A DNA stretch of 64,000 bases from Promethearchaeota archaeon. GTDB lineage: Archaea > Asgardarchaeota > Lokiarchaeia > Sigyniarchaeales > SOKP01. The DNA lies in NCBI GenBank assembly GCA_029838195.1, contig JALGVJ010000031.1, positions 1 to 64,000 on the forward strand, written 5' to 3'. A program made the position numbers and the translations under genes. Of this stretch, positions 1 through 9,759 are shown one piece after another (the stretch's first letter is position 1; every line of letters begins with the position of its first letter). Below the pieces are notes generated by a model that searched no databases, was not told the DNA's origin, and saw nothing but the letters and a program-made list of their open reading frames with translations.

Positions 1-93
1 GGACGCAGAAAAGGCGGGGTTAATTTCCGAGAGAAAGTTTCGGAGCACCCCATCTTGTCCTAAAATCGGAATTGATTGCATCACGAGGAGCAC

Positions 94-169
94 TTCTAAA
101 ACGTTTTAGAAAGAGTGAGAGTCCCGCCTCCCATCGTGTTTGTATCGCTTGGTGAGGCGGGAGTTCTCA
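94..169 (+). mobile_element. Probable right end of an IS200/IS605/IS607-type (TnpB) element: GC-rich subterminal hairpin
   Basis: Imperfect inverted repeat TGAGAGTCCCGCCTC (116-130) ... GAGGCGGGAGTTCTCA (154-169), preceded by the perfect palindrome TTCTAAAACGTTTTAGAA (94-111). It resembles the typical 'TCCCGCC...GGCGGGAG..TCA' ends of these elements. No transposase is visible in the window. Confidence 0.5.
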
Positions 170-425
170 TTAGTTTAACATGTTATGGAGATATTATCTT
201 CGACCTTTAATAAACCCGTGTAATATCGGCGTGATACGTGCAGGACATGGTTATTCCCAAAGCGCACCTTCCCTTGGCTTGCGAGCGAGAACGTGAAATT
301 TCCTTTTTTCTTTCCATTTCCGAGAAGTTGAGATGTTCATTCATCTAAGAGATTTCCCAAATTGCGTCATCACGCCAAGAAAAAAAGTTTTAACTTTAAG
401 GAAAATTATAAATTTACAAAACTTA

Positions 426-488
426 AGTTAAAAATTAATTAGAGCGGTGGAATCTACATATTAAATATAAACAAAAAGTAAAAATGTA
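426..488 (+). repeat. ~63-bp direct repeat, copy 1 (copy 2 at 4180-4243), flanking the repeat-protein gene
   Basis: AGTTAAAAA.TAATTAGAGCGGTGGAATCTACATAT.AAATAT.AA.AAAAAGTAAAAATGTA is present at both sites with only a few differences. Confidence 0.9.
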
Positions 489-630
489 GCAAGAATTTAA
501 TTCAATTGAATGATACCAATCAAACCTTTTATTATAAACTTGCTGCTTTCCAAGTTTCTGCAATATTTACTGAAAGTAAATATTTTATCGCTTGTTTTTT
601 GCCCACTGGATTTACCGCTTTGAATTCAAT

Positions 631-3600
631 TTATCCATATTTCTGAAGTAGCAAGCGTGCAGATTTATCCCCCAAGTCTTTTAATTTTTTTAAAATCTGG
701 ATAGCCCTTTTAACTTTATCACCTTTACGAGTTCTAAATTCTTTTAATATGTTCTTTTTTAATTCGGGATTAGCTTCAATGAACATTTTCCTAATCCCTT
801 CTGATGGTAAGTATTTATAATATTTCCTATTTAAAATTTTCTCAATTGCAGCTAGGTTTCTTGCCTTGAAGAGGGTTAAAACACGTGCTTGAAGAAAAGA
901 TTTCGCGGATTTATCCCCCAAGTTGATTAATTTCCGTAAAATCCAAATGTCCCGCCAGATTTTAGAAGAATAATCATAATTTTTATAGGTTTCAAAATCT
1001 TCTAACATGTTCTTTTTTAATTCGGGATTGGCATCAATGAACATTTTCCTAATCCCTTCTGATGATAAGTATTTATAATATTTCCTATTTAAAATTTTCT
1101 CAATTGCAGCTAGGTTTCCTGCCTTGAAGAGGGTTAAAACACGTGCTTGAAGAAAAGAGTGCACGGAATCATCCCCCAAGTCGATTAATTTCCGTAAAAT
1201 ATAAATGTCCCGCCAGATTTTAGAATCATCATCATCATCAGAGTTTTTATAAGTTTCAAAATCTTTTAACATGTTTTTTTTTAATTCGGGATTGGCATCA
1301 ATGAACATTTTTCTAATCCCTTCTGGTGGTAATTCCTCATGATATTTATTCTCTAAAATGAATTTAATTGCAGCCAGGTTTCCTGCCTTGAAGGAGGTTA
1401 AAATAAGTGCTTGAAGAAAGAATCGTGCGGATTCATCCCCCAAGTCGATTAATCCCCGTAAAATCTCAATGTCCCGCCTGATTTCGGAATGATCATCAGA
1501 ATTTTTATAGGTTTCAAAATCTTCTAACATGTTCTTTTTTAATTCGGGATTGGCATCAATGAACATTTTCCTAATCCCTTCCGGTGGTAAGTACTCATAA
1601 TATTTCCATTTTAAAATGTACTCAATTGCAGCCAGGTTTCCTGCCTTGAATAGGATTAAAACACGTGCTTGAAAAAATAATGGTGCGGATTCATCCCCCA
1701 AGTCGATTAATTTCCGTAAAATATAAATGTCCCGCCAGATTTCAGAATCATCATCAGAATTTTTATAGATTTCAAAATCTTCTAACATTTTCTTTTTTAA
1801 TTCGGGATTGGCATCAATGAACATTTTCCTATGCTCTTCCAGTGTTAAGTACTCATGATATTTCTCCTTTAAAATGAAATAAATTGCATCCAGGTTTCCT
1901 GCCTTGAAAGGGGCTAAAAAACATATGTAAAGAAAAGAGTGCACGGAATCATCCCCCAAGTCGATTAATTTCCGTAAAATATAAATGTCCCGCCAGATTT
2001 TGGAATCATCATCATCATCATCAGAGTTTTTATAAGTTTCAAAATCTTTTAACATGTTTTTTTTTAATTCGGGATTGGCAGCAATGAACATTTCCTCACG
2101 CTTAGTCAGTGGTAATACCTCATGATATCCATTCTCCAAAATGAATTCAATTGCATCCAGGTTTCCTGCCTTGAAAGGGGTTAAAACACATACTTGAAGA
2201 AAGAATCGCGCGGAATCATCCCTCAAATCGATTAATTCCTGTAATATATCAATGTCCCGCTGGATTGTGTAATCATCATAATATTTCTTATAGGTTTCAA
2301 AATCTTCTAACATTATTTTTTTTAATTCGGGATTGACATCAATGAACATTTCCCCACGCGCTTCTGGTGGTAAATCCTCATGATATTTATTCTTTAAAAT
2401 GCACTCAATTGCATTTAGGTTCCCAGCATTGAAGTGGATTAAAACACATGCTTGAAGAAAGGATCGCGCGGAATCATCCCCCAAATCGATTAGTTGCCTT
2501 AAAATACGCATGTCCCGCTTGATTTTATAATAATCATCATAAGAATTTTTATAGGTTTCAAAATCTTTGAGTATTTGTTTTTTTAATTCGGGATTAGTAG
2601 CAATAGATGTTTTCCTACGCTCAGCCAGTGGTAAATCCTCATGATATTTATTCTTTAAGATGAAATTAATTGCATCCAGGTTTCCTGCCTTGAAGGGGGT
2701 TAAAACCCATGTTTGAAAAAGTAATTGTGAGGATTTATCCCCCAAGTCGATTAATTGCAACAAAATATCAATGTCCCGCTTGATTTTATAATCATCATCA
2801 TCATTAGAATTTTTATAGGTTTCAAAATCTTTTAACATGTTTTTTTTTAATTCGGGATTGGCAACAATGAACATTTTCCTAATCCCTTCTGGTGATAAAC
2901 CCTTATGATATTTATTCTTTAAGATGAAATTAATTGCATCCAGGTTTCCTGCCTTGAAGGGGGTTAAAACCCATATTTGAAGAAAGGATCGCGCGGAATA
3001 ATCCCTCAAATCGATTAATTTCTGTAATATATCAATGTCCCGCCTGATTTCATAATTATTATTATTATAATTCTTATAGGTTTCAAAATCTTTGAGTATT
3101 TTCTTTTTTAATTCGGGATTAGTATCAATGAACATTTCCCCACGCATTTCCGCTGGCAATACCTCGTGAAGTTCATTCTTTAAAATGAACTCTATTAGCT
3201 CGAAATTCCCTTGGTTAAATACCTCTATAATGGCTTTCTTAAATAGAAGTTTTGTACATAATTCTTCCCGCTTAATGAAGGGAGATAAAATAAAGGCTCC
3301 AGGACCTTGAGGAAGGGCATTCTTTAAGCTCGTTTCATTCAACAAGTAATATAAGAGCACTATTAGCCCTTTTTCGATTGAAATCATGACGAGTTCTTTA
3401 AGATCCATCTCGTTCAAATAATTAAAATAATAATTTATGAAGAGATAGTGAATTACCGTTTTATGATTACTTACAAGTCTGGAAATGATCTCCCTTTTAA
3501 GGGCTTTTTTTGCCTTAGGATCTCCGGCATCTGCTAATTTCTTCAATAAAGGAAAGGCAAGCGTCCGGTGCAATAGGCGGGTATCATAATCGTGTTCCGT

Positions 3601-3864
3601 CCAGACTTGTAGATTGGAACAATGCCCCCAAAATTCAGTTTCCGGAGGGATATTAAACTTGCTTCTATTTCCTTCCATGGAACGATCTAATCGTTCAGCA
3701 GCCTCATCTATGGATTGAAAATCACCAAATATGTCAATTTTATCCACCGGAAGGTTTAATAAAAGGAATTTACAATGATCAAATTTTTTTCCAGCAACGT
3801 AGATGTTAGTCTTATTATTCTCTAATTTAAGCGTTAAATATTCATTAACCTTAAATTCTTTCAT
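631..3864 (-). CDS. 1077-aa alpha-helical tandem-repeat protein with a Lokiarchaeia-type N-terminal domain
   Basis: N-terminal 'FKVNEYLTLKLE...FWGHCSNLQVW..YDTRLLH..LAFPLLKKL' domain, followed by 10 NPELKK-anchored repeats of 86-89 aa (DNA spacing about 258-267 bp). Confidence 0.9.
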   Translation of the reverse strand: MKEFKVNEYLTLKLENNKTNIYVAGKKFDHCKFLLLNLPVDKIDIFGDFQSIDEAAERLDRSMEGNRSKFNIPPETEFWGHCSNLQVWTEHDYDTRLLHRTLAFPLLKKLADAGDPKAKKALKREIISRLVSNHKTVIHYLFINYYFNYLNEMDLKELVMISIEKGLIVLLYYLLNETSLKNALPQGPGAFILSPFIKREELCTKLLFKKAIIEVFNQGNFELIEFILKNELHEVLPAEMRGEMFIDTNPELKKKILKDFETYKNYNNNNYEIRRDIDILQKLIDLRDYSARSFLQIWVLTPFKAGNLDAINFILKNKYHKGLSPEGIRKMFIVANPELKKNMLKDFETYKNSNDDDDYKIKRDIDILLQLIDLGDKSSQLLFQTWVLTPFKAGNLDAINFILKNKYHEDLPLAERRKTSIATNPELKKQILKDFETYKNSYDDYYKIKRDMRILRQLIDLGDDSARSFLQACVLIHFNAGNLNAIECILKNKYHEDLPPEARGEMFIDVNPELKKIMLEDFETYKKYYDDYTIQRDIDILQELIDLRDDSARFFLQVCVLTPFKAGNLDAIEFILENGYHEVLPLTKREEMFIAANPELKKNMLKDFETYKNSDDDDDDSKIWRDIYILRKLIDLGDDSVHSFLYICFLAPFKAGNLDAIYFILKEKYHEYLTLEEHRKMFIDANPELKKKMLEDFEIYKNSDDDSEIWRDIYILRKLIDLGDESAPLFFQARVLILFKAGNLAAIEYILKWKYYEYLPPEGIRKMFIDANPELKKNMLEDFETYKNSDDHSEIRRDIEILRGLIDLGDESARFFLQALILTSFKAGNLAAIKFILENKYHEELPPEGIRKMFIDANPELKKNMLKDFETYKNSDDDDDSKIWRDIYILRKLIDLGDDSVHSFLQARVLTLFKAGNLAAIEKILNRKYYKYLSSEGIRKMFIDANPELKKNMLEDFETYKNYDYSSKIWRDIWILRKLINLGDKSAKSFLQARVLTLFKARNLAAIEKILNRKYYKYLPSEGIRKMFIEANPELKKNILKEFRTRKGDKVKRAIQILKKLKDLGDKSARLLLQKYG

Positions 3865-4179
3865 GAGTTAATTGTCTTTTTAGTTTTAAATCAATTAATT
3901 ATTTTTTGACTTTAAATATTTAAATTTATTGGAATTTAAATTTATCTATCGAGGATTTAAGATTTAAGATTTAAGATTAGAAAATAGTACGATTTTTTTA
4001 AGAATCTCTTTTTAAGCATAAGAAATTCAGCTTTATTGAGCTATCATTTCAATATAAAGAAAAAAATATAAAAAAAAGAGAAAAGATTTCTAATCGAGGC
4101 TAAATCCTATTAAAGCACATCTTAATGAGGCAATTACATTACTGAAAAACAGAAGCCGATAAGAAAGAGAGAGAAATTC

Positions 4180-4243
4180 AGTTAAAAAAGTAATTAGAGC
4201 GGTGGAATCTACATATCAAATATCAAAAAAAAGTAAAAATGTA
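4180..4243 (+). repeat. ~63-bp direct repeat, copy 2
   Basis: Matches 426-488. Confidence 0.9.
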
Positions 4244-4419
4244 CATGATGAGAAGAAAATTTATTTTTAATAATAATACACGACAATTTAATTAAAGCAA
4301 AGCACTCGAATTTTGGGTAAATTGAATTGATTATATCTTATAAGTAACGATATGAATTTCATGGTAAAGTTTAGTCCATTCTTATTAACCTCAAAAGAAA
4401 ACGAGATTCAATAAGAATT

Positions 4420-5514
4420 TCATGATCGTTTTAATTCTCGATAATATAATTTTTTATGTTTGGGATTCATTTGATTAAATTGAATTTCTGCCTCATCCGG
4501 GGGTAATATCATGATTTTTCCATCTTCTTTTTGGATCACGCAACCAAATTTTATCAGTAATTCATGATTCTTTTTTGTTTCTTCTGGATCTCCAAAACAA
4601 ATTAATTGACAATTTCCACACGTGAGTTTTATATCTTTAATTAATTCAAGTGCGCTCTTATTCCCAATTTTTACATTTTTGAATTCCGGGTCGTTTTCAT
4701 GGTGCGTTAAATCGATGCCTTTTGGTTCTTCGGGATTTTTTGGCCATTTAGAAGCATTATTCACGCAGAGAGAAAAAAGACGCATGACATCCTTGTCTGT
4801 TTCAGGATAAGGAAACCGGCCGGGAGACCATGTAGACCATTTTTTTGTCTTATCTAACCCCAATAATCCGCCACATACAATTTGGCATCTCCCAATATTT
4901 CTCCGTTTTGAGTAACTGAAAGTTTTTCCTCCCAGCATTATGGATTCTGTTTCTTTATCATCGAACATTCTCATTGCACACACGGTCGTACATAGTTTAC
5001 ATTTATTACAAAAGGTTTCTTTTTCCGGAATGGGTTTAGTAGGCTCTAATTTTGCAGAAGTAACTAATGCTCCTAAAATAATCGTGCATCCATGTCCTTT
5101 TAAGCCCACGTTTCCGGACCAGCCAAAAGATCCCACTCCCGATCGTACTGCTAAATATCTGAGAGCCAACTCGGGATACATGCGAAGTTCCCAACCAGGA
5201 ACTTCTTCTCGGTATTTGAAGTTTGGAAAAACTTGAACGGCAGCAAATCCTTTATTTTTTAAGATTCGTGCTCCTTCTTTTGCTAACATGAAGGCTTTAA
5301 TGTTTGTTTCAATATTATCAATTTCGTGCTCAATCCTTCCATTTGGTAATTTTTTTTTTAGAAAAGCGCGAATTTTTTCTTTATCTAAAGGTAAAGCAAA
5401 ACAAATAGCAGATTTAGCAGTTTTTAATGGATATGTAATGTCCACGCTGGGAGGACCACCTGCAAGCGTTTCTGGGGTGGCCACCCCTACTTTTAAAGCT
5501 CCATTTGAAAGCAA
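4420..5514 (-). CDS. Epoxyqueuosine reductase / reductive-dehalogenase-like cobalamin Fe-S protein; N-terminus probably frameshifted
   Basis: 'LAVRSGVGSFGWSGN', 'LGALVTSAKL', CxxCxxCxxxC (CNKCKLCTTVC) and a second CGNCQLIC cluster. Confidence 0.75.
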   Translation of the reverse strand: MLSNGALKVGVATPETLAGGPPSVDITYPLKTAKSAICFALPLDKEKIRAFLKKKLPNGRIEHEIDNIETNIKAFMLAKEGARILKNKGFAAVQVFPNFKYREEVPGWELRMYPELALRYLAVRSGVGSFGWSGNVGLKGHGCTIILGALVTSAKLEPTKPIPEKETFCNKCKLCTTVCAMRMFDDKETESIMLGGKTFSYSKRRNIGRCQIVCGGLLGLDKTKKWSTWSPGRFPYPETDKDVMRLFSLCVNNASKWPKNPEEPKGIDLTHHENDPEFKNVKIGNKSALELIKDIKLTCGNCQLICFGDPEETKKNHELLIKFGCVIQKEDGKIMILPPDEAEIQFNQMNPKHKKLYYRELKRS

Positions 5515-7809: not shown

Positions 7810-9759
7810 TTATTGGTCTTCTAATTGAATGCCCATCTTCCCGAGCTGATCTCGGATAAAATCGCTTATTTTATATGTTTTCCGTTTTCTCAATTCCAAA
7901 CGAATTTCTTTAATAAGACTTAATAATCCTAAAATTAAAGTTCCCCGCTCATCAAATGATCCTCCCAATCCTAAGTCTAATTCCTTTCTCATCCAAAATT
8001 TATCCAATTCCTCAGTAATTGAATTACTAAGCTGGAAAAGTCCCATCTCATGTAAACGAGCTTGGAGAACCGATAATAAATCCAATAAGGATTCAATGAT
8101 GGCACCTCGCTTGTCAAAACTTCCCGCTTTGTCAATATCAAGCTCGCCATCTATTCCAAGTTCACTTAACTTTCCGTGGATAAAATTAATTAAATCGTCG
8201 TGATTTCTGTTTTCCAGTTCTTGATTAAACTTATCCACGAGTTCCAATAATTCTTCAATTAATCTGCCCCTTTTATCAAAAGATCCCGCAACCTCAATGC
8301 TTAATTCTCGTTTCATCCAATAGGTTCTCAACCAACATTGGATGGTTTCACTTAAATCATAAATTTTTTTTTCTCTCAACAATTCCGATATTTTCGTGAT
8401 TAAGTTTAATAATTGTTCAATTAGGTCTCCTCTTTTATCAAAAGATCCCGCAATTTCTAAATCTAACCCCGTGGATAATTCTTTTGATAATTTCGGGAAG
8501 ATTCCGAAAATTTTATCGATTTTGAGTAGAAAATCGATGAACTCCTCTTTAAATTGTTCCGTTATGGGAGTTTTAACTTCAAATAGAGATTTGTTTAATT
8601 CTCGAAATAGCGAATAAATTTTTGCTAATGCCACTGGAGTATCGAAATCATTATCCATGGCTTCTATAATTTTTGTTTCAAATTCCTTAAATCTTTTAAT
8701 TAAACTTTCAAGTTTTTCCGAACTTTCCTCCACGGTTGTTAAATTCATTATTTTTTTTATAGTATTTTTTAATTTCTTATAATTTTTTTCTGCCTGCTGG
8801 ATTGTTTTTAAAGAATAATTAAGAGAACTTCGATAATGACTGGAAATTAAAAAAAGCCGAATGACCATGGGATTAAATTCTTTTACCACATCAGAAACAA
8901 GAAAGAAATTGCCCAAACTTTTTGACATTTTTTCATTATCCACGTTCACGAATCCATTATGAATGAAATAATTGGCAAGTTTTTTACCGGTATATGCCTC
9001 GGATTGCGCAATTTCATTCCTATGATGCGGTGATTTAAGATCTTGGCCTCCTCCATGAATATCGATTGTTTCTCCTAAATATTTGAGTACCATCGCAGAA
9101 CATTCAATGTGCCAACCCGGCCTTCCTCTTCCCCAAGGGCTTTCCCAATACGGTTCTCCTTCCTTCCATTTTTTCCATAAAACAAAATCTTTTGGATCTC
9201 GCTTTTCACCGAGAAATTTTTTATCCATTTCTAAATCTTGTTCTTCTAATTCTCCTTCTTCCACCTCGTCTTGGTCAGCCTCGTCTTTTATGTTTTGAAA
9301 TAAAGTTCTATATTTCGGAAAAGATTTCACGGCAAAATATACCGAGCCGTTGCTTTCATAAGCATGCCCCTTGGAAATCAAGCCTTCAATGATCTTAATT
9401 ATATAATCAATAGTCTCTGTAGCGCGTGGATTGAACGTTTCCTTTTTAATGTTTAAAATTCGCATAATATGTTCATATTCCTCAATATATTGATTGGCAA
9501 GCTCACGATAATCCATGTTTTTCTCCCGTGCACGATTAATTATTTTATCATCAATATCCGTGTAATTTTTCACGATTTTAACTTCAAATCCCTTAAATTC
9601 TAAATACCGCCGAATTATATCAAAAGCTACGGCTGACTTTGCATGACCTAAATGAGGACTATCATAAACGGTTGGGCCGCAGACGTACATCAAAACCTTT
9701 TTTGGAAAAATAGTCTTGAATTCCTCTTCTTTAAATGTCAAGCTGTTGTAGATTTTCAT
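7810..9759 (-). CDS. cysS: Cysteine--tRNA ligase with a 4x repeated C-terminal module
   Basis: 'YVCGPTVYD.PHLGH', 'GRPGWHIECS', 'DIHGGG.DL..PHH.NE' and KMSKS motifs. Confidence 0.97.
   Translation of the reverse strand: MKIYNSLTFKEEEFKTIFPKKVLMYVCGPTVYDSPHLGHAKSAVAFDIIRRYLEFKGFEVKIVKNYTDIDDKIINRAREKNMDYRELANQYIEEYEHIMRILNIKKETFNPRATETIDYIIKIIEGLISKGHAYESNGSVYFAVKSFPKYRTLFQNIKDEADQDEVEEGELEEQDLEMDKKFLGEKRDPKDFVLWKKWKEGEPYWESPWGRGRPGWHIECSAMVLKYLGETIDIHGGGQDLKSPHHRNEIAQSEAYTGKKLANYFIHNGFVNVDNEKMSKSLGNFFLVSDVVKEFNPMVIRLFLISSHYRSSLNYSLKTIQQAEKNYKKLKNTIKKIMNLTTVEESSEKLESLIKRFKEFETKIIEAMDNDFDTPVALAKIYSLFRELNKSLFEVKTPITEQFKEEFIDFLLKIDKIFGIFPKLSKELSTGLDLEIAGSFDKRGDLIEQLLNLITKISELLREKKIYDLSETIQCWLRTYWMKRELSIEVAGSFDKRGRLIEELLELVDKFNQELENRNHDDLINFIHGKLSELGIDGELDIDKAGSFDKRGAIIESLLDLLSVLQARLHEMGLFQLSNSITEELDKFWMRKELDLGLGGSFDERGTLILGLLSLIKEIRLELRKRKTYKISDFIRDQLGKMGIQLEDQ

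Follow-up and report, generated by a model that had tools for sequence, protein, structure and literature searches.

A mosaic array of six-helix repeats in a Promethearchaeota gene is a candidate self-diversifying binding surface

Close to one end of contig C26 in the genome of a Promethearchaeota archaeon (4.5 Mb, 94 contigs, 33% G+C) lies a gene that encodes a constant N-terminal domain followed by a long tandem array of helical units. The window analyzed here is the first 64 kb of this contig (64,000 nucleotides of JALGVJ010000031.1). The gene and its parts are on the minus strand, in a single open reading frame (631..3864, with a TAA stop at 631-633) coding for a protein of 1077 amino acids (P0001), and its G+C content equals that of the genome. 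The core of the N-terminal domain (hereafter N-domain; amino acids 1-100; 3565..3864), delimited by family alignment and an AlphaFold model, consists of a four-strand beta meander plus helices. The remainder of the protein is made of repeat copies, which are mosaic, differ from one another at fixed positions in a way that points to selection for change, and may form a binding surface that diversifies itself.

To describe the array, we built a unit profile from 14 units, nine from this gene and five from its paralog on contig C18. Scanning the protein with this profile revealed a total of 12 repeat copies, of which two upstream ones are divergent and old, nine are similar to each other and young, and one is truncated. 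The first divergent copy, unit -1 (amino acids 101-162; 3379..3564), was recognized by its profile match and modelled helices. Profile positions 30-83 match amino acids 83-162, a region earlier assigned to the tail of the N-terminal domain. Unit 0 (amino acids 163-248; 3121..3378) is degenerate, with the profile matching amino acids 190-248, and its first half was modelled at low confidence (predicted local distance difference test score, pLDDT, below 50 at amino acids 178-191). The nine full and highly similar units (772..3120) were defined by Tandem Repeats Finder, by splitting the protein at the motif NPELKK and by alignment. They are u1 (2860-3120), u2 (2596-2859), u3 (2335-2595), u4 (2077-2334), u5 (1810-2076), u6 (1552-1809), u7 (1294-1551), u8 (1030-1293) and u9 (772-1029). 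Tandem Repeats Finder alone reported a repeat at 736-3196 with a period of 258 nt, 9.4 copies and 82% matches. The terminal unit 10 (634..771), identified by the NPELKK split and the unit profile, is divergent and only 46 amino acids long. Residual unit similarity continues in frame past the stop for about 70 nt (562..630), as a profile match at 562-771 covers positions 1-71 with one TAA inside, and the last unit looks truncated by a nonsense change. A first-pass annotation of this DNA, made from the sequence alone, had counted ten repeats. NPELKK does open ten units (at amino acids 249, 336, 424, 511, 597, 686, 772, 858, 946 and 1032), but these are not equal, since the split yields nine full units of 86-89 amino acids and the truncated one, and the two degenerate copies upstream come in addition.

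The nine full units share 73-92% nucleotide identity and 53-81% amino acid identity (60-81% for the other eight units against unit 6), and 34 of the 89 aligned columns are invariant by hand count of the consensus line. The alignment contained, as quoted in the first-pass annotation, the scaffold motifs, the variants of xIxRDIx and the blocks shared by units 5 and 8 and by units 1 and 4. As modelled for units 1-4, a unit begins with helix 1 (NPELKK..DFETYK), which is followed by an Asp/Asn/Tyr loop, helix 2 (xIxRDIxILxxLID), helix 3 (SAxxFLQ..VL..FKAG), helix 4 (NLxAIxxILK) and two short linker helices. The loop between helices 1 and 2 had been proposed to derive from runs of GAT, AAT and TAT triplets, and reading the codons confirmed it: the loop is encoded by pure GAT runs (3-6 copies), AAT x4 and TAT codons.

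This helical arrangement was taken from an AlphaFold2 model of amino acids 1-596 (through units 1-4) made with a 70-sequence alignment. With a mean pLDDT of 85.4 and a predicted template-modelling score of 0.77, the model shows the four-strand beta meander at amino acids 3-28, a poorly defined segment at 31-70 and then helices only, with units 1-4 each following an identical six-helix pattern. The earlier proposal of a helical solenoid is therefore supported. Foldseek searches with this model gave no match at E 0.001; the weak matches (E 4e-3 to 3e-2, template-modelling score ≤0.25) were solenoids of the HEAT/ARM type and included transportin-3 and designed armadillo proteins. No hit above cut-off was obtained for the whole protein against Pfam, NCBIfam and PDB sequences or for the unit profile against PDB, and the Pfam families ARM, HEAT, ANK and TPR were absent from the protein at E ≤1. 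A separate model of the N-domain region (amino acids 1-165; pLDDT 84, residues ~31-70 low) had no Foldseek match at E 0.001 (best 1.4), a result that does not by itself show a new fold. Its best score with VIA (Z 5.2) was confined to the helical repeat part. ESM Atlas searches with amino acids 1-165 and 1-100 returned solely unnamed Promethearchaeota clusters, or nothing.

Repeat shuffling had been suggested on the basis of near-identical blocks in non-adjacent units, and our tests agree with it. Units 1 and 2 are identical over 31 consecutive sites of the 113 variable ones (permutation test, global p 0.018), and units 5 and 8 over 30 (global p 0.024). The observed value of the pairwise homoplasy index (PHI) was reached in none of 2000 permutations, and trees built from three unit segments grouped the units discordantly. 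These results show the array to be mosaic.

We then looked at selection on the array. Pairwise ratios of nonsynonymous to synonymous substitution (dN/dS, or omega) among the nine units had a mean of 0.80 and a median of 0.81 (range 0.46-1.25, 36 pairs), and the one-ratio codon model M0 gave an omega of 1.05. With 34 columns invariant, an overall omega of about 1 implies that the remaining columns have changed more than expected under neutrality. Site models M1a and M2a were fitted with our own implementation on an IQ-TREE codon tree of 14 units and 81 gap-free codons. On the single tree, M2a (log-likelihood -1848.28) was preferred over M1a (-1857.43; likelihood-ratio statistic 18.3, p 1e-4), with an omega of 2.4 at 35% of sites. 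Because recombination can mislead such models, the unit was cut into thirds and the analysis repeated with one tree per third, which gave a likelihood-ratio statistic of 24.0 (p 6e-6) and an omega of 3.0 at 20% of sites. The constrained class of sites had an omega of ~0.01-0.02. As an internal control, the N-domain core compared with that of the C18 paralog had an omega of 0.28 at a dS of 0.31, and at such a similar dS the excess of replacements is confined to the array. Selection for change is thereby indicated at a subset of sites, provisionally, since the units recombine and the sample is small. The results also fit the claim that variation is concentrated at fixed columns, here as an excess of amino acid change with omega 2.4-3.0 at 20-35% of sites.

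With the per-third trees, eight alignment columns had a posterior above 0.8: column 25 in the loop, column 29 (the x of xIxRD, occupied by R, K, Q or W), column 47 after DxSA, columns 52, 53 and 57 in helix 3, column 67 in helix 4 and column 80 in the linker. As a proxy for exposure, we compared the helical periodicity of variability with the conserved hydrophobic stripe. Variable and conserved hydrophobic faces are 158 degrees apart in helix 2 (p 0.02) and 180 degrees apart in helix 4 (p 0.03). The idea that variable residues occupy one face is borne out to this extent only, as helices 1 and 3 (138 and 150 degrees) lean the same way but do not reach significance (p 0.13 and 0.71). At the eight top sites, 6 of 72 residues are tryptophan, compared with 1% over all unit residues. 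Both the periodicity and the Trp excess fit predicted surface stripes; a single face is not thereby established.

Differences between assemblies were also found. The exact 1077-amino-acid protein is recorded on three contigs, the longest of 69218 nt, and a 290-amino-acid fragment on a 2.8-kb contig matches its N-terminus identically and stops within unit 1. On a separate 7.7-kb contig, a 658-amino-acid fragment begins at the contig end inside unit 2 and keeps the order of units 3-10 with two differences: seven Asp instead of six in the loop of unit 5 (GAT x6 run in our sequence, 2005..2022) and a V to A replacement at column 52 (posterior 0.99). In addition, we mapped Logan contigs of four metagenome runs to window positions 1-4400, with a depth of 2-9 over the gene; those covering the array were 51-302 nt long. 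One contig of run X1 (depth 5.8) has ATC inserted behind 1224, which adds one GAT to the GAT x5 run of the Asp loop of unit 8 (1225..1239). The slippage in triplet runs inferred in the first-pass annotation is thus supported by loops that differ by one Asp codon between assemblies. In one contig of run X2 (depth 3), the end of unit 8 runs straight into the head of unit 5; this jump measures 1047 nt and corresponds to exactly units 5-8. Across the runs there were 11 single-base differences, of which six change the amino acid and five are silent when taken as single changes. Those at 2314 and 2315 share one codon, so that six of the ten codons struck are changed, and some of these differences may stem from contigs of other units placed at 90% likeness. 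We take the assembly differences as hints of variation in loop length and unit order, not as proof.

The N-domain places the protein in a large family. A search of 5.8 billion protein clusters yielded 273 homologs at E ≤0.001, almost all of which match just the first ~150 amino acids (50-68% identity); the named sources are genomes of Promethearchaeota, Lokiarchaeota and Heimdall-, Hel- and Hermod-archaeota. Of these 273, 120 matches were listed, and by hand count 79 of the 120 carry leucine-rich repeat (LRR) families and 21 have no Pfam family, the other partner domains among them being TPR, WD40, Ras/Roc GTPase, ORC/Cdc6 AAA, Memo and JAB. It had been anticipated that the N-terminal domain would belong to an expanded family with alternative C-terminal repeats, and LRR, TPR and WD40 were indeed found. 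The domain occurs in 32 of 41 related genomes, including 24 of 24 from the same family, with 1-26 matches each. Among 86 aligned members, N7, L12, C31, D53, C82, S83, N84, W88 and Y93 are invariant and H81 and H99 nearly so, and the pattern E77-F-W-G-H-C-S-N is present in the array protein. In its own genome, the N-domain is found at seven places, and four of these seven proteins, one of them a pseudogene, continue with LRR-type motifs (L..L..L.L..N, by eye); such paralogs were seen on contigs C41, C59 and C6. The paralog on C6 (45975-47495, minus strand, locus L007) combines the N-domain with LRRs and has three in-frame TAG stops. Decoding of these as pyrrolysine was ruled out, because one TAG stands where the N-domain has its invariant Trp, and for the same reason this paralog looks like a pseudogene rather than a recoded gene.

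The helical repeat also has relatives. A search of 1.84 billion representatives with the unit profile gave 48 proteins at E ≤0.001 and 11 at ≤1e-10. The best matches (P0122, P0123, P0126 and P0127) have an N-domain, then 5-10 helical units and then a C-terminal LRR region, and P0025 has the same order of N-domain, repeat and LRR. Their helical units are 76-90 amino acids long and homologous over the whole unit. Since the best matches share both the N-domain and this whole-unit homology, the family as a whole has this repeat type, which is unnamed. The profile matches directly after the N-domain core in 10 of 10 relatives scanned, and the identity between unit cores within these ten proteins is 16-59%, against 53-81% in the array protein. 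To judge from these profiles, the array contains a lineage-specific form of an unnamed helical repeat of 76-90 amino acids, and its units resemble one another unusually closely. Strong matches to the unit with NPELKK..DFETYK and the acidic loop were restricted to two loci of the same genome, on C26 and C18. The NPELKK-type unit was not found in a genome of the same genus (G001, 96% complete), and 16 other related genomes gave weak matches (E 9e-9 or worse) to the core of the unit only. Elsewhere, it was found in just five fragments (P0002, P0124, P0164, P0125 and P0165). The C18 locus (2-2283, minus strand, L002) is the only paralog with this type of unit, and its N-domain is 82% identical. 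It is frameshifted inside the fourth unit and runs off the contig end. As P0164 reads this spot differently, the frameshift may come from the assembly or reflect variation in the population. We also noted P0135, a 1133-amino-acid ankyrin protein with >10 nearly identical 33-amino-acid units, which weakly matches unit positions 28-68.

The neighbors of the repeat gene are an unannotated Cys-rich protein, an amidohydrolase and a cysteinyl-tRNA synthetase, that is, housekeeping genes and no defence neighbors; PADLOC assigned no family to the protein or its three neighbors. The immune role considered in the first-pass annotation is neither supported nor contradicted by these results or by the lack of a nucleoside triphosphatase and of known effector domains in the protein. 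In G001, the first two neighbors are syntenic and a different gene stands in the place of the repeat gene. A direct repeat of ~58 nt (plus strand) flanks the gene on both sides and has no further copies in the genome. Its downstream copy lies at 431..490 and its upstream copy at 4185..4243, with 26 nt exact at 436-461 and 4191-4216, and it may be the trace of an insertion or local duplication. Window positions 1-430 belong to a multi-copy element of which 92-97% identical copies end contigs C48, C87, C17, C33 and C79. The element occurs as an inverted pair on C33, its depth in public contigs is 17-43 compared with 2-9 over the gene, and it probably represents an insertion-sequence end. The contig therefore ends because of this element and not because of the array. 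No Rfam family matched window positions 1-4500. About 90-115 nt upstream of the start codon, a GATTTAA heptamer is perfectly repeated in tandem (3954-3978, 3.6 copies) within an AT-rich leader that also holds the TATA-like TTTAAATATTTAAA closer to the start. The cysteinyl-tRNA synthetase (7810-9759, minus strand) has a C-terminal extension of ~200 amino acids with four copies of a ~50-amino-acid unit around the motif AGSFDKRG.

We put at roughly 0.55 the probability that the product of the gene is a cytoplasmic alpha-solenoid, a member of a large unnamed Asgard family, and that its array is a self-diversifying binding surface. The cytoplasmic location is inferred because no hydrophobic N-terminal stretch was seen by eye. 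The variable stripes would form the ligand-binding face, for a protein or another macromolecule, and the N-terminal domain would be a docking or effector module. In such a protein, the constant module, an N-domain of ~100 amino acids rich in conserved Cys, His and acidic residues, would serve a common partner or activity, and the variable module would be a string of ~87-amino-acid six-helix units, one of which presumably multiplied recently in this lineage to give 9-10 near-copies. Gene conversion or unequal crossing-over among the 258-nt units would keep the young units alike, move blocks and alter unit order, and slippage in the GAT/AAT/TAT runs would lengthen or shorten the acidic loop that links helix 1 to helix 2. 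Selection would favor replacement at ~8-15 positions, which lie in the linker between units and on those stripes of helices 2, 3 and 4 that are not hydrophobic, and the hydrophobic scaffold would stay fixed.

A number of points weigh against a self-diversifying surface. Site-model tests are known to yield false positives under recombination, and splitting the alignment into thirds lessens this problem without removing it. Moreover, M2a itself leaves 43-60% of sites at omega 1, which makes much of the variation compatible with relaxed constraint. Exposure of the variable sites is read from helical periodicity alone, and helices 1 and 3 do not show it significantly. The population evidence consists of single contigs of low depth (3-6), and Illumina assemblies of such arrays are described as unreliable (PMC12222747). 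The same source quotes 80-100% identity for the high-internal-conservation (HIC) repeats of fungal NLRs, whereas our units share 53-81% at the amino acid level. In the relatives, the repeat lies between N-domain and LRR, a position that also fits a spacer role, and the C18 frameshift together with the stop in the last array unit could signal decay.

The main rival takes up several of these points and sees in the array a spacer or stalk unit that was recently amplified, with surface positions that drift, selection on the packing scaffold only and no specific recognition. Most sites do fit an omega of 1 (66-72% under M1a, 43-60% under M2a), recombination can inflate the tests, the homologous repeats of relatives form a segment of variable length between the N-domain and the LRRs, and the NPELKK-type array is restricted to one lineage. 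We nevertheless find such a drifting spacer rather unlikely, considering that both designs prefer M2a to M1a (p 1e-4 and 6e-6, omega 2.4-3.0), that Trp, Tyr and Arg are favored as replacements at fixed helical stripes, and that the sole substitution between two assemblies falls on a top site. Two further explanations are less likely than the drifting spacer. A frame of 3234 nt open through all 12 units, 34 strictly invariant columns with a constrained-class omega of ~0.01-0.02, purifying selection on the N-domain core (omega 0.28) and length changes that are, wherever observed, whole codons make it improbable that the high dN/dS reflects a lineage-specific gene losing its function on the way to a pseudogene. 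Decay would account for the frameshift of the C18 paralog, the TAA in the terminal unit with unit-like sequence beyond it, the three in-frame TAG stops of the C6 paralog with N-domain and LRRs, and G001, which is without an ortholog and has another gene at the syntenic locus. The order or number of units could also have been created by short-read assembly, as misbuilding of such arrays by Illumina assemblies has been reported (PMC12222747). Other assemblies do break in the array: P0124 stops within unit 1, P0002 begins late in unit 2, P0125 and P0165 are pieces of 64-69 amino acids, and the public array contigs measure 51-302 nt. Such an artefact is very improbable here given that the array sits inside a 69-kb contig whose end is due to the separate multi-copy element at 1-430, and that the independent 7.7-kb contig gives units 3-10 in the same order with two differences. 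Nucleotide differences of 8-27% also make most units distinguishable.

Asgard archaea are unusually rich in solenoid proteins, whose function is described as unresolved (bioRxiv 10.64898/2026.10.28.762692). The array gene provides a way into this question, and the evolution of its units singles out a few candidate contact positions. As the N-domain is common to tens of paralogs per genome, one N-domain pull-down could place the whole family. NLRs of fungi and bacteria are known to contain repeat sensors that diversify themselves (PMC12222747; bioRxiv 10.1101/2020.01.06.895854). In our literature search, which covered listings and passages of papers, we found no such sensor in archaea or on a scaffold free of a nucleoside triphosphatase (NTPase), nor did we come upon the N-domain family or any Asgard array of diversifying, self-similar units. 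More speculatively, and in our opinion doubtful at this stage, the N-domain family could be an NTPase-free archaeal receptor or adaptor system that joins a single constant docking or effector domain to interchangeable solenoid sensors (LRR, TPR, WD40 or helical), of which the array gene would be the first member caught generating specificities in the manner of fungal NLRs, by shuffling, slippage and positive selection, for example toward viruses, mobile elements or partner cells.

Compared with known systems, the array resembles several in part. TALE repeats are units of ~34 amino acids in which a variable pair of residues reads DNA bases. The analogy drawn earlier with TALE, LRR and ankyrin receptors holds in general terms, but membership in each was rejected. 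A TALE-like array is ruled out by the period of 86-89 amino acids and by variation spread over ~8-15 columns in three helices, loop and linker; P0001 has no LRR family match in Pfam, and no ANK family at E ≤1. With ARM/HEAT solenoids (importin-alpha, transportin-3, designed armadillo proteins), the array shares a predicted right-handed stack of helical repeats, and alignments of unit -1 with ARM, ANK and Nup205 segments reach Z 4-5. However, its period is 87 amino acids and six helices instead of ~40 amino acids and two or three, and it has no membership by sequence. F-box style adaptor families combine a constant docking domain with LRR, WD40 or other repeats. The N-domain family likewise pairs a constant N-terminal domain with interchangeable repeats and has many paralogs per genome, whereas the array protein showed no sequence or fold similarity to F-box (Pfam, NCBIfam, Foldseek, VIA). 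Its Promethearchaeota relatives (P0122, P0123, P0126, P0127, P0010, P0018 and P0025) have N-domains 40-68% identical to its own, repeats homologous over the whole unit and a first repeat directly after about amino acid 100, but most of them end in LRRs, of which the array protein has none.

The HIC repeats of fungal NLRs, such as the WD40 repeats of the Podospora HNWD genes het-d and het-e, are highly similar tandem units maintained by recombination, with a few hypervariable codons under diversifying selection on a predicted interaction surface (PMC12222747; bioRxiv 10.1101/2020.01.06.895854). Their arrays gain, lose and shuffle repeats, short-read assemblies break on them, and comparable WD and TPR repeats have been noted in bacterial NLR-like proteins. 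The array protein differs from these in its archaeal host, in a unit that is an unnamed six-helix repeat of 87 amino acids and not WD40, TPR or ANK, and in having neither a NACHT/NB-ARC NTPase nor a known effector domain (Pfam, NCBIfam). As the NTPase is lacking, it is not an NLR. HIC repeats are polymorphic in number in natural populations; the array shows, on short contigs, one variant junction (depth 3) and two one-codon loop differences. The identity between its units is higher than in the family relatives (16-59%) and lower than the 80-100% quoted for the HNWD genes. What it has in common with HIC repeats is hypervariable codons under apparent diversifying selection and recombination between units. 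The behavior described for the HIC repeats of fungal NLRs, and noted for bacterial NLR-like proteins, is the closest known match to that of the array.

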